Below, in pieces: positions 7,946-64,000 of a stretch of 64,000 nucleotides of DNA. The position numbers and the translations under genes are program-made. Each line of letters opens with the position of its first letter. The first letter of the stretch is position 1. Source of the stretch: Dictyostelium discoideum (taxonomy: Eukaryota); assembly GCA_000004695.1 (NCBI GenBank), contig CM000154.2, forward strand, positions 3,392,001-3,456,000. Reading direction: 5' to 3'. The notes beneath the pieces are model-generated. The model did not search any database, was not told where the DNA came from, and worked only from the letters and a program-made list of their open reading frames with translations.

Positions 7946-8525
7946 GAATATTTTTTTTTTTTTTTTTTTGTATTTATAACAATAAAAAAATATACTTACT
8001 GAATTTATTATAAAGTAAATCTTTTTAATCATTGATTTTGTATGAGCTTTTAAAGGAATTTCATAACCATTTTTACCAAATCTAAAATGGAATAATAATA
8101 ATATAATAAAATTAGTATAGGTTTTTTTTTTTTTTTTATTAAATTAAAGTGTGAATTGTTGTTGATAATATTTACATTTTAAAAGAACCATCATTAAACC
8201 CAATTGCACATAAATTCAAAACATTATCAAAGGCTAATGCACTTTTTGTCCCATTAATACCATTTATAAAAATCTATAAAAGAAGAAAAGTTGAAAAAAG
8301 TAAAAATGAAAAAAAATAAAGGAAAAAGTGTGAATAATTTTTTGTAAGTTTCCTTTTTTTTATTTTTTTTTTTTTTATTTTTTAATAATGACAAACATTT
8401 TTTCCAAATTCGTTGATGTCTTGTTTGTTTGGGGTTTTATTTGGAGTTGCTGGTTTTTTGAAAATATCTTCTTCGTCTTCATCTTCATCTTTAATAAATT
8501 TTTTAATTTTATTAAAAATTGACAT
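4878..8525 (-). CDS. Tomosyn/Lgl (lethal giant larvae)/Sro7-family WD40 protein with a C-terminal R-SNARE-like coiled coil. It has 4 exons and about 1090 aa.
   Basis: Exons are complement(8397..8525), complement(8176..8273), complement(8000..8081) and complement(4878..7850). Exons 1-3 were not in the ORF track. Joined, they read MSIFNKIKKFIKDEDEDEEDIFKKPATPNKTPNKQDINEFGKN | IFINGINGTKSALAFDNVLNLCAIGFNDGSFK | IFGKNGYEIPLKAHTKSMIKKIYFIINS | PFIIIVTDSSIEKWDYDRMKLNN... This matches the Lgl/tomosyn N-terminal signature (hGFP.qPsALAfDpv..lLAIGt..G.i.ifG.pGve...H). The donors are GTTTGT (weak, 8396), GTAAAT (8175) and GTAAGT (7999). The acceptor AGs lie at 8274, 8082 and 7851. All phases are consistent. 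The large exon has WD40-like blocks. The C-terminus, KRGDQLKELELKTSEMEMSSRAFSQMAKQLSKK, is an R-SNARE/VAMP-like heptad motif as in tomosyn. Confidence 0.7.
7857..7944. repeat. (ATT)n microsatellite of about 29 units inside the last intron of the tomosyn/Lgl-like gene.
   Basis: A perfect ATT repeat read directly in the sequence. It lies between the donor at 7999 and the acceptor at 7851 on the minus strand. Confidence 0.9.
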
Positions 8526-8895
8526 TTTTGTTTTTTATTAAAAATAGTTGTATTTCCAAAAAAATAAAAATAAAAAATAAAAAAAAAAACTATAAAAAAA
8601 AAAAAAAAAAATAAAAAATAAAAAAAAATGAAAAAAAAAAAATAAAAATAAAAAATGGGAACAGTTGTCAATTTCAAATAAAAAAAAAAATAAAAAAAAT
8701 AAAAAAAATTATAATTTTAGCTCTACCAAATAAAAATAAAAAAAAAATAAAATAAAAAAAGTTTTAAAATGACCCTCTAGTTCGATACTTGCTATGAATA
8801 ATCGATAGATAACATAAATCTATGATTATTATCAATAGTAACACACTTTCAATTCATTCATTTTAGTCGATAAAATAGTGAGAATCATTTTGCGC

Positions 8896-8907
8896 TGACG
8901 TATATAA
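8896..8907 (+). promoter_or_regulatory. CRE-like TGACGTA overlapping a TATATAA TATA box, at the edge of a GC-richer island (8761-8905).
   Basis: The island stands out against an otherwise pure A/T intergenic spacer. It lies about 400 bp upstream of the + strand gene starting at 9305. The function is unverified. Confidence 0.3.
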
Positions 8908-9081
8908 TTTTACTTTGAATTTTAAAAAAAAAAAAATAAAAAAAAAAAAAAAAAAATGAAAATAAAAATAAAAATAAAATAAAATAAAATTTTTTTATAA
9001 TTTTATGGATTAAATAATAAAAAAAATTTTATGTATGTGTTCCTCATAATATTTAAATAATATATCACCTTTACAAAAATT

Positions 9082-9116
<35 letters not shown>

Positions 9117-9304
9117 AGTTAATTTTTTTTTAAATTTTTTTTTTTTTTTTTGTTTTTTAAATTTTTTTTTTTTTAATTTTTTTATTTTTTTTATTTTTTT
9201 TTTTAAATTTTTTATTTTTTTTTTTTTTTCATATTTTGTTGAACCTCTTTAGAGAAAAAAAAAAAAAAAAATTAAAAAAATAAAAATCAACTCCATCTCA
9301 TCCG

Positions 9305-16014
<6,710 letters not shown>

Positions 16015-54670: not shown

Positions 54671-56375
54671 ATGATAAGCAATAAAAAAGTAGCAGTTATT
54701 GGGGCAGGATTGAGTGGATTATGTTTTTCAAAATATATTAATCAAATTGGGGATTTAGAACCAACAATTTTTGAAAAAACCAATGATATTGGAGGTGCTT
54801 GGTCAAATTCATCAAATAGAAAATCATGGGATAGTTTGAAGTTAAATACAAATCAATTATCAAGTAAGTTTTATTAATTTTTTTTTAATTTTTTATCTTA
54901 TTATAATTATAATTAATAAATTATTAATCCTTTTTTTTTTTTTTTTTTTTTTATTAGTGTCATTTTCAGATTTTCTATTTAAAAATCAATTCCCAAATAA
55001 AGAAGAAATTTTCCCATCAAATAAAACATTTTATGAATATTTAAAAAGTTTTGTTGAAAATTTTGAATTAATAAATTATATAAAATTTAATTCAAATGTT
55101 ATTAAAATTGAAAAGAATGTGGTTGTAGATGAAAATGAAAGTAATTGTAAATGGAAAGTTGTATGGGAATTTAATAATAATAATAACAATAATCAATCAA
55201 TAATTTATTCAGAAATATTTGATTATGTTGTTATTTGTACTGGTGCATTCTCAAAAAGTTCAACAAAGAATGATTTAGAGATTAAATTGAAACAATTTAA
55301 AGGTGATATAATACATAGTGAAAATTATAGAAATCCTGAATTATTAAAAGGAAAGAAAGTGCTTATTGTCGGATCATCATTTTCAGCATGTGAAATTGCA
55401 AATGATGTATGTAAAGAAGTTTCAAAATGTATTCAAATCGGTCATGAAAATTTCTATGCAGTAAATACATTTTTACCAAATGAAGATGGTAAACATATAC
55501 CTTGGGATATGTTATTTTTCACTCGTAAATCAATTTATGAAAAAAATAATAATTATAAAACTGATCAAGAGTTATGGGAAGTTTCAAAGAAAATGTTAAT
55601 ACAAATTTGCCCAAATCAAGATTTATCCAAAAATCCAAATTCTAAAATACCAATTAAAACAACACCTGAAAATCAACCACCAATTGGTTTTACAGTTTCA
55701 AGAAATTATTATGAAAATGTTGAATCTGGTAAAATTATTACATATACAGGTGATAATTATAAAATCCACTCAGTAGATGGTAATTCAATAACATTTTCAA
55801 ATGATAAAGGTGAGGTTAATACTGTTGATAAAATTGATTCAATTATTGTATGTAGTGGATACCAAATAGAGTTCCCATTTTTAGAAAATGATGTTTTGGA
55901 AGATATTTGTTATGATTCAAAAGATCAGTTCTTGCCTATGTGTATTTATGAACATACTTTTCCAAGTAAGTTCAAAAGTATTGCTTTTATTGGTTGTGTT
56001 AAAGGAATATTCTTAACAGAAATTGAAATGTATTGTCGTTGGGTTTCATTAGTATTTTCAGGTAAACTAGAATATCCAAATGATGAAAAATTAAGTCAAG
56101 GTAAAAATGATATTTTAAAATTAAGATCAGTCAGACCTCGTCCACAATTCCCAATTCTTGATTGTGTTTATCATTGTGATAAAATTGCTAAAGAAATTGG
56201 TTGTTTACCTGATTTTGAATCAATTAAAATCAATGATCCTGAATTATATAATAAATTATGGAATGGATTCTTTTGTCAAGCATCATATAATTTAATTGGT
56301 CCTGGTTCAAATCCAACATTAGCAAAAGAAATAATAAATAATTATTATGAAAATTATCAACAATTTAAAAATTAA
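54671..56375 (+). CDS. Flavin-containing monooxygenase (FMO)-like protein, paralogue 1 of 4 in a tandem array. Two exons, about 536 aa.
   Basis: join(54671..54863, 54958..56375). Exon 1 ([22 protein letters not shown]...[13 protein letters not shown]) carries the FAD GxGxxG motif. The donor is TCA A|GTAAGT (54864) and the acceptor is ttattAG (54957); the intron is phase 1 and A+TG gives Met. Exon 2 has the FMO-identifying motif [15 protein letters not shown] (FxGxxxHxxxY) and the NADPH motif [16 protein letters not shown]. Confidence 0.8.
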
Positions 56376-56807
56376 ATAATTTATCAAAAAAAAAAAATAA
56401 ATTCAATTTTTATATATAATAATATATTTGTAATAACAATATGTGATAAAATACCAATTATCTATGAATTTAAAATACTCTCTACTTATAATTATCATCA
56501 TTTATTTAAAAATAATTAAATTAATAAATATTTAATAAGTTAAATATTATTTGTTTATTAAATTATTTTTCTTTTCACAGAATTAAAAAATTTAAATAAT
56601 TAATATTTTAATAAATAAATTATATAAAATTTATAAAACAATAATTTTGAACAATAATTACAAATAAACAAAATTAAAACACAAATAACAAATATTAAAA
56701 ACTGTTACAATAATACATATAATTATTATTTAAATTAACACCACTCTTAAATTATCCTTGGATTCTAACAGAATAAAATATAAAATAAGTTTTTTAAATA
56801 AATAAAA

Positions 56808-56848
<41 letters not shown>

Positions 56849-57114
56849 CTTTAAGATTAAAGTATAAAATAAGAAAAGAAATAAAATAGTTTGAAAAATA
56901 AAATTGGAAGGGGATGAATTGTAATAATTAATAAAAAATATAATGTCATTCTTTAAATTGTATGAAATAAAAAAAAAATATGTGTAAAATTGTGTTTTTT
57001 CAAAAAATTATTAAAGATTGTTAAAAAGTATAAATTTTCAAATTAGAATAAGTATAAAATAAAGAAAAAATAATAAAATAATAATAAAATAATAATATTA
57101 ATAGTAATAATAAT

Positions 57115-57120
<6 letters not shown>

Positions 57121-57196
<76 letters not shown>

Positions 57197-57201
57197 TTAA
57201 T

Positions 57202-57253
<52 letters not shown>
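57121..57253. repeat. (AAT)n intergenic microsatellite of about 40 units, with TA interruptions.
   Basis: Read directly in the spacer between FMO-like genes 1 and 2. Confidence 0.9.
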
Positions 57254-57289
57254 TAGAAATAATAATTTTATTATTATTGTAAAAAGTTT

Positions 57290-57302
57290 GGGGTGAACAC
57301 CC
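57290..57302 (+). promoter_or_regulatory. Palindromic G-box GGGGTGAACACCC about 185 bp upstream of FMO-like gene 2.
   Basis: It is an inverted repeat of GGGTG/CACCC half-sites and the only GC cluster in the spacer. Confidence 0.4.
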
Positions 57303-57476
57303 TAAAAAAAGGTAGGATTATTGTTTTTTTATTTAATTTTTTTTTGGGGAATTTTAAAATTTTTCATTTTAATTTGTTATTTATTTTTTGTATATATTTC
57401 AAATTTATTAAAAATAATAAAAAGAAAAAAGTTTGTACGATTATTGGTAACTATATTTTTTTTAAATTAAAATAAA

Positions 57477-57712
57477 ATGATAAAAAATAAAAAAGTTGCT
57501 ATTATCGGTGCGGGACCTTCTGGATTATGTTTTGCTAAATATATAAACCAAATTGGATATTTAATTCCCACAATTTTTGATAAATCAAATGATTTTGGTG
57601 GTGTTTGGTCAAATTCTACATATAGAAAATCTTGGGATAATTTAAGAACAAACTTTAACCAATTTTCAAGTAATTATATAAAATTTTATTTATAATATTT
57701 TGTTTTATTCTA

Positions 57713-57757
<45 letters not shown>

Positions 57758-59192
57758 TTTTTTTTTTTTTTTTTTTTTTTATTTTAAACAAAAAGCTTCA
57801 TTTTCAGATTTCCCATTTAAAGATAGATTTCCAAGTAAAGGTGAAGTTTTTCCAACTAATCAAGAATTATATGAATATTTTAAATGTTATGTTGAACATT
57901 TTGATTTAATGAAAATTATTAGATTTAATTCTACAATTATTAGTGTTAAAAAATTAAAAGGATCGAGAGAAGATTTTACAAATTGTAAATGGAAAGTTAC
58001 ATGGGTTGAAAATGATAAAACCACATTAACTGAAGTTTTTGATTTTATTGTTGTGGCAAGTGGAATATTCTCTAAAGGTTTTGTATCAAAAGATTTACAA
58101 ATGAAATTAAAAAATTTTAAAGGTAATATTATCCATTCTGAAAATTATAGAAATCCAGACCCGTTAAAAGGAAAGAATGTTGTAGTTTTGGGGTCATCTT
58201 TTTCAGGTTGTGAAATTGCAAATGAAGTTTCAACTGTTACATCAAAATGTTATCAAGTTGGCCATGAAAATTATTATGCAATAAATTCATTTATACCAAA
58301 TGAAAAAGGAGTAGAAGTTCCATGGGAAATGATATTTCATGTTAGAAATTTAAGTTATCAAATTAATCATAACAAATCAATTAAAGAAATTTGGGAAACA
58401 AAAAAAAAGTTTTTATTAGATATTTGTCCAAAACAAGATATCAAAAAGTATCCAAACTCATTATTACCAATTAAAACAACACCAGAAAACCAACCCCCAA
58501 TTGGTATAATTTTTTCAAGAAATTATATTGAAAATGTCGAATCTGGTAAAATTAAAACATTTACAGGTGATAATTATAAAATCCAATCTGTAAATGGTAA
58601 TTCAATAACATTTTCAAATGATAAAGGTGAAATTAATACTGTTGATAATATTGATACTGTTATATTAAGTAGTGGATTTCAAATTGATTTCTCATTCCTA
58701 GATAACGATGTTTTGGAAGATATTTGTTATGAACCTACAGATTCCTTAGTTCCAATGTGTCTTTATGAACATACATTTCCAAGTAAATTTAAAAGTATTG
58801 CTTTTATTGGTTGTTTAAAAGGTGTGTTCCGTTTTGAAGTTGAATTATATTGTCGTTGGGTTTCTTTAGTATTTTCAGGTAAACTAGAATATCCAAATGA
58901 TGAAAAATTAAGTCAAGGTAAAAATGATCTTTTAAAATTAAGATCAATCAGACCTCGTCCACAATTCCCAATTATTGATTGTGTTTATCATTGTGATAAA
59001 ATAGCTAAAGAAATTGGTTGTTTACCTGATTTTGAATCAATTAAAATCAATGATCCTGAATTATATAATAAATTATGGAATGGATTCTTTTGTCAAGCAT
59101 CATATAATTTAATTGGACCTGGTTCGAATCCAACATTAGCAAAAGAAATAATAAATAATTATTATGAAAATTATCAACAATTTAAAAATTAA
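57477..59192 (+). CDS. FMO-like protein, paralogue 2 of 4. Two exons, about 529 aa.
   Basis: join(57477..57669, 57796..59192). The donor is TCA A|GTAATT (57670) and the acceptor is aaaAG (57794-57795); the intron is phase 1 and contains (ATT)n and poly-T. A+CT gives Thr, so the protein reads ...NQFSS|TSFSDFPFKD. This keeps the SFSDF block shared with all four paralogues. The motifs are [15 protein letters not shown] and KNVVVLGSSFSGCEIA. The last ~110 codons are about 97% nucleotide-identical to paralogue 1. Confidence 0.8.
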
Positions 59193-59316
59193 AAAAATAA
59201 ATAAATAAATTATCCTAATATTTTAATTACTTTTGTATCTGTAATTTATCCAATTTATTAAATTATTTTTTTAAACTATTTAAATCATCAAAATTGTCTC
59301 TTTTTTTTAATTTGGT

Positions 59317-59363
<47 letters not shown>

Positions 59364-59457
59364 TAAGCTAAAAAAATAAAAAAGATAATAAAAATTATAA
59401 TGATTATATACATTTATATATATATTTATATATATATTAATATTTTTTTTTAATATT

Positions 59458-59515
59458 GGGTGAAATTAAATTATTAAGTGTAATAATTTCCTAGTGGTGT
59501 GGGTGAAATTAAATT
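59458..59515 (+). promoter_or_regulatory. Direct repeat of GGGTGAAATTAAATT, the second copy preceded by GTGGTGTGGGTG, about 230 bp upstream of FMO-like gene 3. This is a G-box-type element.
   Basis: Two copies of a G-rich 15-mer lie 43 bp apart. GTGTGGGTG is a GBF-type G-box. Confidence 0.35.
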
Positions 59516-59741
59516 CTTGTGTTTAACTTTTTTTATTAACCACCTTAAATCTCGATCTAAATTTATTAATAATAATCATTTCAGAAAAAAAAATTATAAT
59601 AATTAGTTTTTTTTTGTTTTTTTTTATTTTTCTTTAGACCCCCTTTTTTTTTTTTTAAAAAAAAAAAAAATATATTATTTGTTATTTTTTATTTTTATTT
59701 CTCTTTAAACCCCTTTTTTATTTTATTTCTAACTATTTACA

Positions 59742-60179
59742 ATGATAACAAATAATGATAATAAAAATAAAAATAATTTTAAAAAAGTTGCTATAATTGG
59801 ATTTGGACCTGCAGGAATTTGTTCTACAAAGTCAGCAATTGAAAATGGATTAAACCCAACAGTTTTTGAAATGTCGTCAGATTTAGGTGGAGTATGGAGT
59901 AAATCAAATGGAAAGGTTTGGGATAATTTAACAACAAATGTTTCAAGATATACAATGAGTTTTTCTGATTTTTTAAATGAAGAAATAAATGATGAACCAT
60001 ATAATAATGATGAAAATAATATGTATCCTCACCATTCTTCAATTTATAAATATTTAAATAAATATGTTGATCATTTCAATTTAAAGAAATTTGTAAAATT
60101 TAATTCAAAAGTTATAAAAGTAGAAAAGGTTTTTAAAACAAATGATAATTTTAAATTAAATGTAACATATAAATCAACA

Positions 60180-60238
<59 letters not shown>

Positions 60239-61424
60239 AGGTGATGATGATTTTACAAGTGAAATTTTTGATTTTTTAATTGTTTGTACTGGTGTATTTT
60301 CAGAACCACAAGAATGTGGATTATATGAAAATGAATTAAAACAATTCACAGGTAAAATTATACATTCACAAGATTATAAAAATAATAATGATAGATCTGG
60401 AAAATCAATAGTTGTATTAGGTTCATCAATGTCAGCATGTGAAATTACTTCAGAAGTTTCCAAGGTAACTTCAAGATGCTATCATGTTGGTCATGAAGTA
60501 CATCATGTTTATAATAAACATTTACCATATAGAAAAAATCAAATTGCACCATTGGATTGTGTAATTTATCAGAGAAAGGAGGCATATGAAAGACAAGATT
60601 TACCAAGGGAAGAGTTTTTAAAACAAAAAAATAAAATGAATAAATTGTATTGCCCTAAACAAGATTCAGATAGATATCCAAATTCAAAGATTGCAATTGC
60701 ACCAGGATACAAATCTATGGGTTTAGTAATATCATCAGAGTATGTTACTCAATTTGAAAATGGCTCAATATCAGTATTTTGTGGTGACCAATTTACAATA
60801 TCCTCGTCGTGTGGAAAGAGTGTAACTTTTTCAAATTGTAAAGGTGATAGTCATACAGTGGAGGATATTGATGAGATTATAATTTGTAATGGATATAAAA
60901 CTGATTTATCATTTTTTGAAAAAAGTGTACTAGACGCTCTGGATTATAAACCAGAAGATACGAAAAGACCAATATTACTATACAGAAATCTATTTGCAAA
61001 AGATTTGAAAAATATTGGTTTTGCATCTTTTTTTAGAGGTTTATTCTTTTGTGAAATGGAGTTAATTACAAGATGGATGTGTTTGGTTTTTACTGGTAAT
61101 CATCCATATCCAAATTATTATCAATATAAAAATGGTATAAAAGATAGAAATTTTAAAATTAATCTTGATAATGCTCCACAATATTTAATTGCTGGGTCAA
61201 CAACTTATTGTGATTTGGTTGCATTAGAAATTGGTGTTTTACCTGATTTTGATAAATTAAAAATAACAGATCCAATATTATATGATCTCATTTGGAATGG
61301 TCATTTTACACCTGCAATATATAGATTAGTTGGACCTGGTTCAAACCCTAAACTTGCAAAAGAACTAATTGAAAAAGTAAATAACAATTATAATATTTAC
61401 ATAAAAAAAATAAATAATAAATAA
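59742..61424 (+). CDS. FMO-like protein, paralogue 3 of 4. Single exon, 560 aa, with an internal poly-N insert.
   Basis: ATG verified at 59742. The motifs are VAIIGFGPAGICS, FTGKIIHSQDYKNN and KSIVVLGSSMSACEIT. The SFSDF region is contiguous here, with no intron. Confidence 0.8.
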
Positions 61425-61667
61425 TAATTTTTTAAAAGTATGTTTTTTTTTTTTTTTTAATTATTTATTTATGTAAATATTATTTATTATTTTAATATTT
61501 CAAGATTGTTAAAATTTCTTATTTTAATTTTAGATTTTAAAAATATCTGATTTTTTTTTTTTTTAACTTTTGAAATTTTTTATTTTTGTTTTTGATTTTA
61601 AAAATATTTTTATTTTTCATTTTTTTTTTTTTTTTTTTCATCAAAAAAAAAAAAAAATTAATATGAA

Positions 61668-63281
61668 ATGATAAATAATAATAATAAAACAGTTGCAATT
61701 ATAGGATTTGGACCAGCAGGTATATGTTCAACAAAATCATCAATTGAAAATGGATTAATACCAACAGTATTTGAAATGTCATCAGAATTGGGTGGTGTTT
61801 GGAATCCTTCAATTGGAAAATGTTGGGATAATCTTACAACCAATGTCTCAAGATATGTTATGTGTTTTTCAGATTTTGATTATCATAATGATGATTATGA
61901 TATTTTTCCAAATTATAAAACAGTATATCAATATCTAATAAACTATGTGAATCATTTCCAATTAAAAAAATATGTAGAATTTAATTCAAAAGTTATTAAA
62001 GTTGAAAGAATTGATTCTGATTCCAATACTATAGTAACAACAACCTCGGAGGAAAAAGAAGAAAAAGATAAAATAATTAAAATAACTTGGATAAATAGTA
62101 ATGATAATAAAACCTATTCAAAAATATTTGATTATTTAATAGTTGCAACTGGATTATTTTCAAAACCACAAAATTCAACAATGTATGAAAATGAATTAAA
62201 ACAATTTACAGGTAAAATTATTCATTCACAAGATTATAAAAATAATGAAATTTATAAAGAAAAGAATGTTTTAGTATTAGGTTCATCAACATCAGCATGT
62301 GAAATATCAGCAGAGATATCAATGGTAACCAAGAAATGTATAATTGTGGGTCATGAAAATTCATATATCTATAGTAAACTTTTACCAAATGAAAACGGTT
62401 CAAAATTAGTACCATTAGATTCCTTACTTTTTCAAAGATCAAAATCATATGAACAACAATCATTACCAAAAGATGAATTTTCAAAATTAAAAAAACAAAT
62501 GAATTTAAAATATTGTCCAAATCAAAGTAAAGAAATTAATCCAACCTCAAAGATAATTGTAAATACACCAACTGATAAAACATTAGGATTTGTAGCATCT
62601 TCATCATATATAGAACAAGTTGAAAATGGTTTTATTTCAGTTCATTGTGGTAATGAATTCACAATAAAATCATCATCAAAGAAATCAATCAAAATTTCAA
62701 ATTGTTTAGGTGAAACTCATACAGAAGATAACATTGATTTCGTTATACTTTGTAATGGATATCAACCAGATTTATCATTTTTTGATGAAACCATATTAAA
62801 TTCAATTGATTATTTACCATCAGATTCAAAAAGACCACTTTGTTTATATAAGAATATATTTGCTCCAAATTCTAAAAATATAGCATTCATTTCATTCTTT
62901 AGAAGTTTATTTGTTGCAGAAGTTGAATTAATGTCAAGAATGATAACAATGATATTTAGTTCAAAAATTCCATATCCAACTGAATTTGAAATTAAAAATG
63001 GTTTTATAAATAGAGGAAATAATAATATTAATAATAATAATGATCCACCTTATTTTTTAGTAGCTGGTTCAACAGTTTTATGTGATCAAATTGCAAAGGA
63101 GATTGGTGTATTACCAGATTTTAAAAAATTAAAACAATCAGACCCAAAATTGTATGATCAATTATGGAATGGTTATTTCACTCCTGCGACATATCGTTTA
63201 GTTGGTAATGGTTCAAATCCAAAAGTTGCAAAAGAAATGATTGAAAAAGTTAATAAAATATATGATAAACTTTGTAATTAA
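61668..63281 (+). CDS. FMO-like protein, paralogue 4 of 4. Single exon, 537 aa.
   Basis: ATG verified at 61668. The motifs are VAIIGFGPAGICS, FTGKIIHSQDYKNNE and KNVLVLGSSTSACEIS. It is intronless, and is most similar to paralogue 3. Confidence 0.8.
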   Translation: MINNNNKTVAIIGFGPAGICSTKSSIENGLIPTVFEMSSELGGVWNPSIGKCWDNLTTNVSRYVMCFSDFDYHNDDYDIFPNYKTVYQYLINYVNHFQLKKYVEFNSKVIKVERIDSDSNTIVTTTSEEKEEKDKIIKITWINSNDNKTYSKIFDYLIVATGLFSKPQNSTMYENELKQFTGKIIHSQDYKNNEIYKEKNVLVLGSSTSACEISAEISMVTKKCIIVGHENSYIYSKLLPNENGSKLVPLDSLLFQRSKSYEQQSLPKDEFSKLKKQMNLKYCPNQSKEINPTSKIIVNTPTDKTLGFVASSSYIEQVENGFISVHCGNEFTIKSSSKKSIKISNCLGETHTEDNIDFVILCNGYQPDLSFFDETILNSIDYLPSDSKRPLCLYKNIFAPNSKNIAFISFFRSLFVAEVELMSRMITMIFSSKIPYPTEFEIKNGFINRGNNNINNNNDPPYFLVAGSTVLCDQIAKEIGVLPDFKKLKQSDPKLYDQLWNGYFTPATYRLVGNGSNPKVAKEMIEKVNKIYDKLCN

Positions 63282-63387: not shown

Positions 63388-64000
63388 TTAATTATATAAA
63401 TCAATATCTTTACTCCCAACATATTCGCAAATATCATCTAAATCAAATTCTAAAACTGATAAATCACCAACTAATTGCACTATAGCCATTTCAATATCTT
63501 TTTTATTTCTTCTTCTTTCAATTAATGTTCCTATTTTTCCTTTATATTTTCCTCTAACTATAATTAAATCACCCTTTACTTTTGGTATTGCTGTTTCTAA
63601 CATACTCTGTTTAACATTCTCTACGACCACTCCATTATCAAAATGTAATGAACATAACTTTTCTCCTAAAATATCTGAAACTGTAGCTTTTTTATTATAA
63701 TATTTACCATCTCCCAATGATTTACTAATAACTTTAACTAAAATTTGTGGTCTAATCCACATAACTGAATTTGATGATGATGATGATGATGAACTTGATG
63801 TTGAATAAGATGAAGAACTTGAAGTAGATGATGATGATTTACTACTTGATGATGAATAAGATGATGAACTAGAAGAGGATGATGATGATTTACTACTTGA
63901 TGATTTACTATTGTTATTATTATTATTTGTTGTTAAATTTTTATCATAAAGTTGTAAATCAAATTTATCAACTATAACTTTTTCATCAGATTTGAAAATA
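63388..64000 (-). CDS. KIN17-like DNA/RNA-binding protein, C-terminal part. The gene continues beyond the 3' edge of the window.
   Basis: The frame stays open from 64000 down to the stop at 63388; the ORF-track start at 63762 is internal. Near the C-terminus it has WIRPQILVKVISKSLGDGKYYNKKATV...KGDLIIVRGKYKGKIGTLIERRRNKKDIEMAIVQL. This matches the tandem SH3-like/KOW region of KIN17 (WLQPGIVVKIITKKLGEKYHKKKAIV...ILVLNGGYRGNEGTLESI). A poly-Ser tract lies upstream of it. Confidence 0.65.
   Translation of the reverse strand, partial: IFKSDEKVIVDKFDLQLYDKNLTTNNNNNNSKSSSSKSSSSSSSSSSYSSSSSKSSSSTSSSSSYSTSSSSSSSSSNSVMWIRPQILVKVISKSLGDGKYYNKKATVSDILGEKLCSLHFDNGVVVENVKQSMLETAIPKVKGDLIIVRGKYKGKIGTLIERRRNKKDIEMAIVQLVGDLSVLEFDLDDICEYVGSKDIDLYN

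Follow-up and report, generated by a model that had tools for sequence, protein, structure and literature searches.

The stretch of Dictyostelium discoideum AX4 DNA analysed here (64,000 nucleotides (nt), about 22% G+C, referred to as the window) contains at positions 54671–63281 a tandem of four genes of the flavin-containing monooxygenase (FMO) family, all on the + strand and designated g1 to g4 in their order. The last 345 nt of g1 and g2 are nearly identical, whereas the genes are widely diverged upstream. Comparison with other genomes indicates that this locus has very probably undergone recurrent interlocus gene conversion between g1 and g2 over the last 345 nt, together with a single gain of a fixed phase-1 intron on the g1/g2 stem. 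The gene models are as follows.

54671..54863, + strand: g1 exon 1, 193 nt, with the flavin adenine dinucleotide (FAD)-binding GAGLSG and with GGAW
54864..54957, + strand: g1 intron, 94 nt, phase 1, GTAAGT...TTAG
54958..56375, + strand: g1 exon 2, to the TAA stop; PF00743 E 2.4e-61
57477..57669, + strand: g2 exon 1, 193 nt
57670..57795, + strand: g2 intron, 126 nt, phase 1, GTAATT...AAAG, with an (ATT)n run inside
57796..59192, + strand: g2 exon 2; PF00743 E 3.2e-58
59742..61424, + strand: g3, intronless FMO gene, uninterrupted open reading frame (ORF), 560 amino acids (aa), with a poly-Asn run at about 60180–60236
61668..63281, + strand: g4, intronless FMO gene, uninterrupted ORF, 537 aa; exact match to DDB_G0289931/Q54GT0

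Spliced g1 (54671–54863 joined to 54958–56375; 536 aa) was 100% identical to XP_635985/Q54GT4, which is named "flavin-containing monooxygenase", and spliced g2 (57477–57669 joined to 57796–59192; 529 aa) corresponded exactly to DDB_G0289927/Q54GT2. An initial annotation of the window had placed four same-strand FMO paralogues at these coordinates, and the models bear this out, since g1, g2 and g4 match the reference proteins exactly and all four contain PF00743. The four genes are already annotated as FMO-family members. The starts of g1 and g2 lie 2.8 kb apart on the same strand, and the g3 and g4 ORFs are uninterrupted in 7/7 genomes compared. Scanning of the 64-kb window revealed no FMO gene beyond these four and no tRNA gene.

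All four proteins matched the Pfam FMO-like profile PF00743 with E values of 1e-50 to 1e-61 and scores of 172–208 bits (cut-off 22), from profile position 2 to about 490. Each contains an FAD motif at residues 11–20 (GAGLSG, GAGPSG or GFGPAG), GGxW at residues 41–49, and the FMO motif FxGxxxHxxxY, which reads FTGKIIHSQDY in two of them; residues G13, G16, G41 and G42 were invariant in a 54-sequence alignment. The initial annotation had ascribed to every protein the FMO signature and two dinucleotide-binding motifs. The signature and the FAD motif were confirmed in all four, and the second motif, that for nicotinamide adenine dinucleotide phosphate (NADPH), was found at the expected place but not in the canonical form: the middle Gly of GxGxxG/A is replaced, giving the variant G-S-S-x-S-A/G (GSSFSA, GSSFSG, GSSMSA and GSSTSA).

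The AlphaFold model of g1 (predicted local distance difference test 91.2, predicted template-modelling (TM) score 0.91) appeared to match the two-domain FMO fold, with a Foldseek E value of 7.6e-40 and TM scores of 0.80–0.82 to crystal structures of the ancestral mammalian-type enzymes AncFMO2 (6sem), AncFMO3-6 (6se3), AncFMO5 (6sek) and AncFMO1 (7al4). As judged by motifs and model, the four genes encode predicted class B flavin-containing monooxygenases, a group of enzymes that depend on FAD and NADPH for the oxygenation of soft nucleophiles. The window proteins resemble the mammalian-type FMO in PF00743, in the FAD GxGxxG motif, in FxGxxxHxxxY and in the predicted fold, but the identity in the Foldseek alignments was only 24–27% and the NADPH motif differs as described above. 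Mammalian FMO enzymes, moreover, carry a membrane anchor. No hydrophobic C-terminal segment was found in the last 60 residues of the four proteins, where the maximum Kyte–Doolittle 19-residue mean was 0.30 in both g1 and g2 and did not exceed 0.67 in any protein, and the membrane anchor of the mammalian enzymes is therefore absent from them.

The 3′ region common to g1 and g2 and the features associated with it are located as follows.

56031..56375, + strand: putative conversion tract, g1 copy; codons 423–536 plus stop, predicted all-helical C-terminal region
58848..59192, + strand: putative conversion tract, g2 copy, 345 nt
56006..56030, + strand: 5′ boundary block in g1, 14 mismatches to g2 in 25 nt; G-I-F-L-T-E-I-E-M in g1, G-V-F-R-F-E-V-E-L in g2
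58823..58847, + strand: 5′ boundary block in g2
55648..55800, + strand: second, weaker homogenised stretch in g1, 89–92% identical to g2 58465–58617, in the discoideum group only

The two copies of the tract differ at 7 of 345 nt (98.0% identity, 2.0% difference), in agreement with the near-identity over about 340 nt recorded in the initial annotation, whereas exon 2 upstream of the tract differs by 25.8% between g1 and g2. In a sliding codon-based window the nucleotide identity was mostly 57–84%, reached 89–92% near 55700–55800 and was 96–100% from about 56030 to the stop; it is thus strongly non-uniform along the two genes, and not uniform, as it should be if there were no distinct tract. 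At the protein level the identity was 63.1% for residues 1–422 and 97.4% for residues 423–536, so that the divergence claimed earlier for the 5′ two-thirds stands, at a value (63%) slightly lower than the 65–75% given then. Third codon positions differed between g1 and g2 at 121 of 351 (34.5%) in upstream exon 2 versus 4 of 115 (3.5%) in the tract, and with exon 1 added (145 of 415 upstream third positions) the binomial P was 2e-16. The maximum chi-square was above that of all 1000 permutations (0/1000). With a single breakpoint it placed the break at 55647 and not at 56030, because the identity rises in two steps, and the region is described here as two nested zones. Similarity between g1 and g2 ends a few bases past the stop and the flanks are then unrelated, as had been noticed before. 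In the g1 model the tract would correspond to the end of helix 417–431 and the rest of the C-terminus, the helices covering it running from H417–431 to H517–535; it aligns to AncFMO2 residues of about 384–480.

The locus was compared in the following assemblies. L007 (GCA_054883475.1) is a chromosome-level long-read assembly with 99.45% identity to the window across 19 kb, and is presumably the AX2-214 assembly described in PMC12745789. L008 (locus-tag prefix ACTFIR, hereafter FIR) and L002 (GCA_054859355.1, ACTFIW) are isolates recorded as "D. discoideum", L009 (GCA_054859205.1, ACTFIY, hereafter FIY) is recorded as "D. cf. discoideum", L001 (GCA_054859145.1, ACTFIU) and L003 (ACTFIV, hereafter FIV) are D. 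citrinum isolates, and L004 (GCA_036169595.1, locus 8092–13425) is D. firmibasis. The four-gene array was found in the same neighbourhood in L008, L002, L009, L001 and L003. D. firmibasis has a three-gene array, with one g1/g2-type gene before g3 and g4; this single copy lies 230 nt from g3, with no relic of a second copy between them. Judged from these arrays, the g1/g2 duplication would either be younger than the firmibasis split or have been followed by a clean loss; the neighbour-joining protein tree, which joins the D. firmibasis single copy to g1 with a bootstrap of 57% only, does not separate the two. Among the genomes examined the array is confined to the D. discoideum/D. citrinum/D. 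firmibasis clade. A homologue search returned no g1/g2-type protein from D. intermedium or D. dimigraforme, an absence that is uninformative since the same search also missed its D. firmibasis query. That D. firmibasis g1/g2-type protein (528 aa), called on its contig, was missed by two homologue searches, even as query; absences in such searches therefore do not amount to gene absence.

The near-identical tract was also present in L008, L002, L009, L001 and L003, with the same 5′ boundary. The last paralogue-diagnostic site common to the species is 56022 and the first same-genome tract site is 56051, and the 5′ limit between them is common to AX4 and six other genomes. Within the tract, the copies of one genome differ by 1.2–5.5% and discoideum–citrinum orthologues by 9–12%. 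Upstream the distances are reversed, with 22–27% between paralogues and 13–20% between discoideum–citrinum orthologues; an exception to the paralogue range is L002, in which a g2-like copy occupies the g1 slot. Neighbour-joining trees for the seven genomes flip between the two partitions: upstream sequences group orthologues (g1 orthologue clade 98%, the same split as g2), whereas tract sequences group g1 with g2 of the same genome (AX4 g1+g2 82%, FIY g1+g2 84%, all four citrinum copies 100%). In the four-taxon site patterns below, the first number counts positions at which g1 and g2 of one genome are alike but unlike those of the other genome, and the second counts positions at which the orthologues match; the upstream part is exon 2.

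AX4 against D. citrinum FIV: tract 25:0, upstream 20:93
AX4 against FIR: tract 8:2, upstream 1:205
AX4 against FIY: tract 10:0, upstream 1:179
FIR against FIY: tract 11:0, upstream 0:172

Eight genome pairs were tested, and Fisher P for tract versus upstream patterns ranged from 1e-9 to 1e-18. At the level of sequence, the same-genome patterns in the tract show that homogenisation took place separately in the AX4, FIR, FIY and D. citrinum lineages after these had diverged. The recent gene conversion proposed in the initial annotation is thereby supported in seven genomes, while its alternative, a partial re-duplication, is not supported, the flanks not being duplicated and homogenisation having recurred separately in each lineage. 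By their divergence g1 and g2 themselves are old duplicates, about 25% apart in nucleotide sequence, a distance equal to that of either gene from the single one of D. firmibasis. In the second stretch (55648..55800) the paralogue divergence was 7–14% in AX4, FIR and FIY versus about 20% in D. citrinum, with orthologues at 15–16%, and this stretch is probably older than the main tract. Sliding windows over g3 and g4 in 7 genomes detected no tract in which the paralogues were clearly closer than the orthologues, the only hint being at the 3′ end in D. firmibasis. There, the g3 and g4 3′ ends (aligned to window 61242–61330) differ by 11–14% versus 19–22% in other genomes, which may represent a small lineage-specific conversion.

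Exon 1 measures 193 nt in both g1 and g2, and both introns, with GT..AG borders directly before (M/T)SFSDF, are therefore phase 1; g3 and g4 read through this site, as the initial annotation had described. The intron occurs at the same site and in the same phase in every g1/g2 copy of the 7 genomes in which exon 1 is still present, as well as in the single copy of D. firmibasis. No intron lies at the SFSDF site in g3 and g4 of 7 genomes, in the P0006-type gene (L005, intronless) and the P0009-type gene (L006, introns elsewhere), in DDB_G0289779 (L010) and in D. purpureum DICPUDRAFT_57884 (L011). A neighbour-joining tree of the FMO proteins, the construction of which had been recommended at the outset, gave 100% support to the group of the P0006-type gene, g1/g2 and g3+g4, as well as to g1/g2 and to g3+g4. 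The intron "polymorphism" first suggested does not describe this distribution, the intron being fixed in all g1/g2-type genes with exon 1 and absent from g3 and g4 in all genomes; nor was an intron lost or gained inside the present array, as the difference between the paralogue lineages predates the g1/g2 split. From the genes compared, the phase-1 intron is considered ancestral to the g1/g2 lineage and fixed in it. It antedates the duplication that produced the pair, and parsimony would place a single gain on their common stem.

Several strains depart from the intact arrangement of the pair. A rearrangement affects the g1 slot at L002:2668–9159, where g1 exon 1, nearly intact, and the first intron bases are preserved (about 2668–2880), followed by an insertion of about 4 kb with two unrelated ORFs, one of 492 aa with a signal-peptide-like start and one of 111 aa, neither of which gave a significant Pfam match or similarity to the other loci compared. 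Past the insertion stands a complete g2-like gene, 2–3% different from the strain's own g2, bordered by g2-like sequence on its 5′ side and by g1-like sequence on its 3′ side, and the 3′ junction appears to fall within the shared tract. L009 lacks, at 11723–11930, the g1–g2 spacer together with the promoter and exon 1 of g2, so that g2 exon 2 begins about 200 nt after g1; the record annotates a 942-aa g1–g2 fusion protein (P0064), and g2 has a 10-nt deletion inside the tract. This g2 is probably a dead or fused gene, as far as its sequence indicates. In L001 (12205–13926) g2 has two frameshifts and an in-frame stop, with 8 stops in the spliced frame; the annotation gives it extra introns and a product of 485 aa. 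The 3′ tract of this gene is nonetheless intact and close to that of g1. The gene is likely to be a pseudogene that still takes part in conversion. The g1/g2 pair is structurally unstable in natural isolates.

The use of a paralogue as template in homologous-recombination repair is an established process. At the present locus a break in one copy would be repaired on the neighbouring copy without crossing over, the molecular route being presumably synthesis-dependent strand annealing or double-strand-break repair. The shared 5′ boundary would then be a self-maintaining homology limit, which is the explanation favoured here: the block of 14 mismatches in 25 nt (56006–56030) would halt heteroduplex extension, and the tract, nearly identical downstream of it, would remain well suited to recombination. 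Selection against overwriting of the diverged catalytic part may contribute to holding this boundary. The 3′ boundary at the stop would follow from the fast-diverging A+T-rich spacer.

Three other readings have to be weighed against recurrent conversion. A collapse of reads of one paralogue onto the other in the AX4 reference has the high tract identity itself in its favour and nothing further, apart from the fact that an A+T-rich, repeat-rich region can trouble assemblies. The two tracts are not identical, since 7 sites differ; the independent long-read assembly L007, of a near-identical laboratory strain, contains the whole of g1 unchanged and an exact counterpart of each tract, with the variants peculiar to each copy at the 7 differing sites, and the same architecture occurs in five further genomes. 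The g2 intron of L007 shows a 4-nt length difference, within the repeat. Assembly collapse, which the initial annotation had named as one of two findings that could undo its proposal, is rejected on the exact recovery of both tracts in L007, and its probability is practically nil. A single old partial re-duplication or conversion in the discoideum/citrinum ancestor, with nothing but strong purifying selection on the C-terminal region since then, would account for the same 5′ boundary in all lineages and for the better conservation of this region between orthologues including D. firmibasis (9–14% in the last 250 nt versus 21–30% elsewhere). It predicts sorting by orthologues, while the site patterns in the tract (25:0, 10:0, 11:0 and 8:2) group copies of the same genome; the silent divergence of paralogues (1.7–7%) is below that of orthologues from lineages that split later (6–16.5%), and the flanks were not co-duplicated. 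We regard one old event as highly improbable.

The third reading accepts recurrent conversion and holds that selection confines it to codons 423–536, the two enzymes needing an identical C-terminal helical module, for a common partner, an oligomer interface or localisation, while their catalytic two-thirds diverge. In agreement with this, the boundary is identical across lineages with up to about 10–16% silent divergence in the tract, the tract is a contiguous, predicted all-helical C-terminal region, and wider conversions do occur (55650–55800, and g1 nearly all replaced by g2-like sequence in L002), so that the mismatch barrier is not absolute. Yet the 14 mismatches in 25 nt explain the limit without selection, the tract would start in the middle of helix 417–431 of the model and not at a domain edge, and the g2-like gene in the g1 slot of L002, the g2 without exon 1 of L009 and the frameshifted g2 of L001 speak for weak constraint on the pair. 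Such selection-limited conversion is unlikely. Somewhat more doubtful still is the specific proposal that conversion maintains identity between g1 and g2 over the 114 helical residues of the C-terminus in several species, both enzymes having to fit one common partner, oligomer interface or cellular location, with spread into the catalytic two-thirds selected against. If it were true, g1/g2 would be a natural example of domain-resolved concerted evolution, and the variants in L002, L009 and L001 would be test cases.

Some observations weigh against recurrent conversion with a single intron gain, or against parts of it. Between the two D. citrinum strains the tract pattern is mixed (7:7), homogenisation there being either partial or older. 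Silent divergence between orthologues is also lower in the tract (15–16%, versus 28–30% upstream, for AX4 and D. citrinum); some added constraint or a lower mutation rate therefore likely contributes to tract similarity. No GC enrichment of the tract was found (0.249 versus 0.241–0.255 upstream in AX4, other genomes being similar). GC-biased composition is frequent in gene conversion and does not define it, and as the bias is not universal its absence does not exclude conversion. As to the intron, the deeper nodes of the neighbour-joining tree behind the parsimony argument have 51–58% support, which bears on the direction of the change. Finally, the putative cause of the common 5′ boundary is the homology limit, with selection for a shared C-terminal module as the minority alternative.

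Apart from the g1/g2 pair, long (AAT/ATT)n microsatellites of the region, at 57060–57255 (g1–g2 spacer), 57715–57760 (g2 intron) and 60180–60236 (g3 poly-Asn), vary in length between assemblies. The g3 gene of L007 measures 1799 nt with an annotated product of 556 aa; the annotated model must therefore hold an intron of about 130 nt that is not in AX4 g3, and a longer poly-Asn repeat is likely behind it. On the minus strand, 63388–64000 is the 3′ part of a convergent gene that ends about 100 nt from the g4 stop, and its orthologues in other assemblies have G-patch, KOW, KN17_SH3 and GPKOW_C domains. The chromosome that carries the array has a fifth FMO paralogue, DDB_G0289779, at a distance of about 170 kb (L010, AX2-like assembly CM142511.1:3350337–3358019), with a retrotransposon ORF (RVT_1) beside it; its identity is 34% to the g1/g2-type protein of D. 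firmibasis and 29–33% to the four genes of the window. The same type is represented in D. firmibasis by a tandem pair, RB653_009087 and RB653_009088.

In the literature, no paper was found on DDB_G0289927, DDB_G0289931, neighbouring identifiers, Dictyostelium fmoA–E or conversion at this locus. The FMO array is absent from the passages of PMC12745789 consulted, in which no text search for FMO was made. Conversion at this locus is apparently unreported so far. For Dictyostelium it provides a clean, well-controlled case in which interlocus gene conversion recurs and the tract keeps its boundary across species. In practice, inclusion of the 3′ 345 nt misleads phylogenies or orthology calls for these FMO genes, and short reads mapped to the 3′ end of g1 or g2, like constructs for knock-out or tagging placed there, hit both genes.

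The process concerned, interlocus gene conversion with mosaic concerted evolution, is well known, for instance from primate globin, opsin and CYP21/CYP21P genes and from many yeast and Drosophila duplicates, and neither a new mechanism nor a new kind of gene is involved here. The g1/g2 pair resembles the globin, opsin and CYP21 cases in having a delimited tract that is almost identical even at silent sites, in its sharp boundaries and in the incongruent trees of tract and remainder, as well as in the close same-strand tandem layout and the recurrence in separate lineages. It differs from them in the lack of GC bias in the tract and in a boundary conserved across species of a haploid, extremely A+T-rich amoeba. 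Within Dictyostelium, the tgr genes, as presented in the passages of PMC12745789 consulted, are likewise a rapidly evolving tandem family, studied in the same long-read genome set, and duplication, gene conversion and recombination are named there among the general routes by which recognition loci diversify. In those passages the tgr genes diversify at a hypermutable hotspot, whereas conversion between g1 and g2 homogenises part of two metabolic-enzyme genes.

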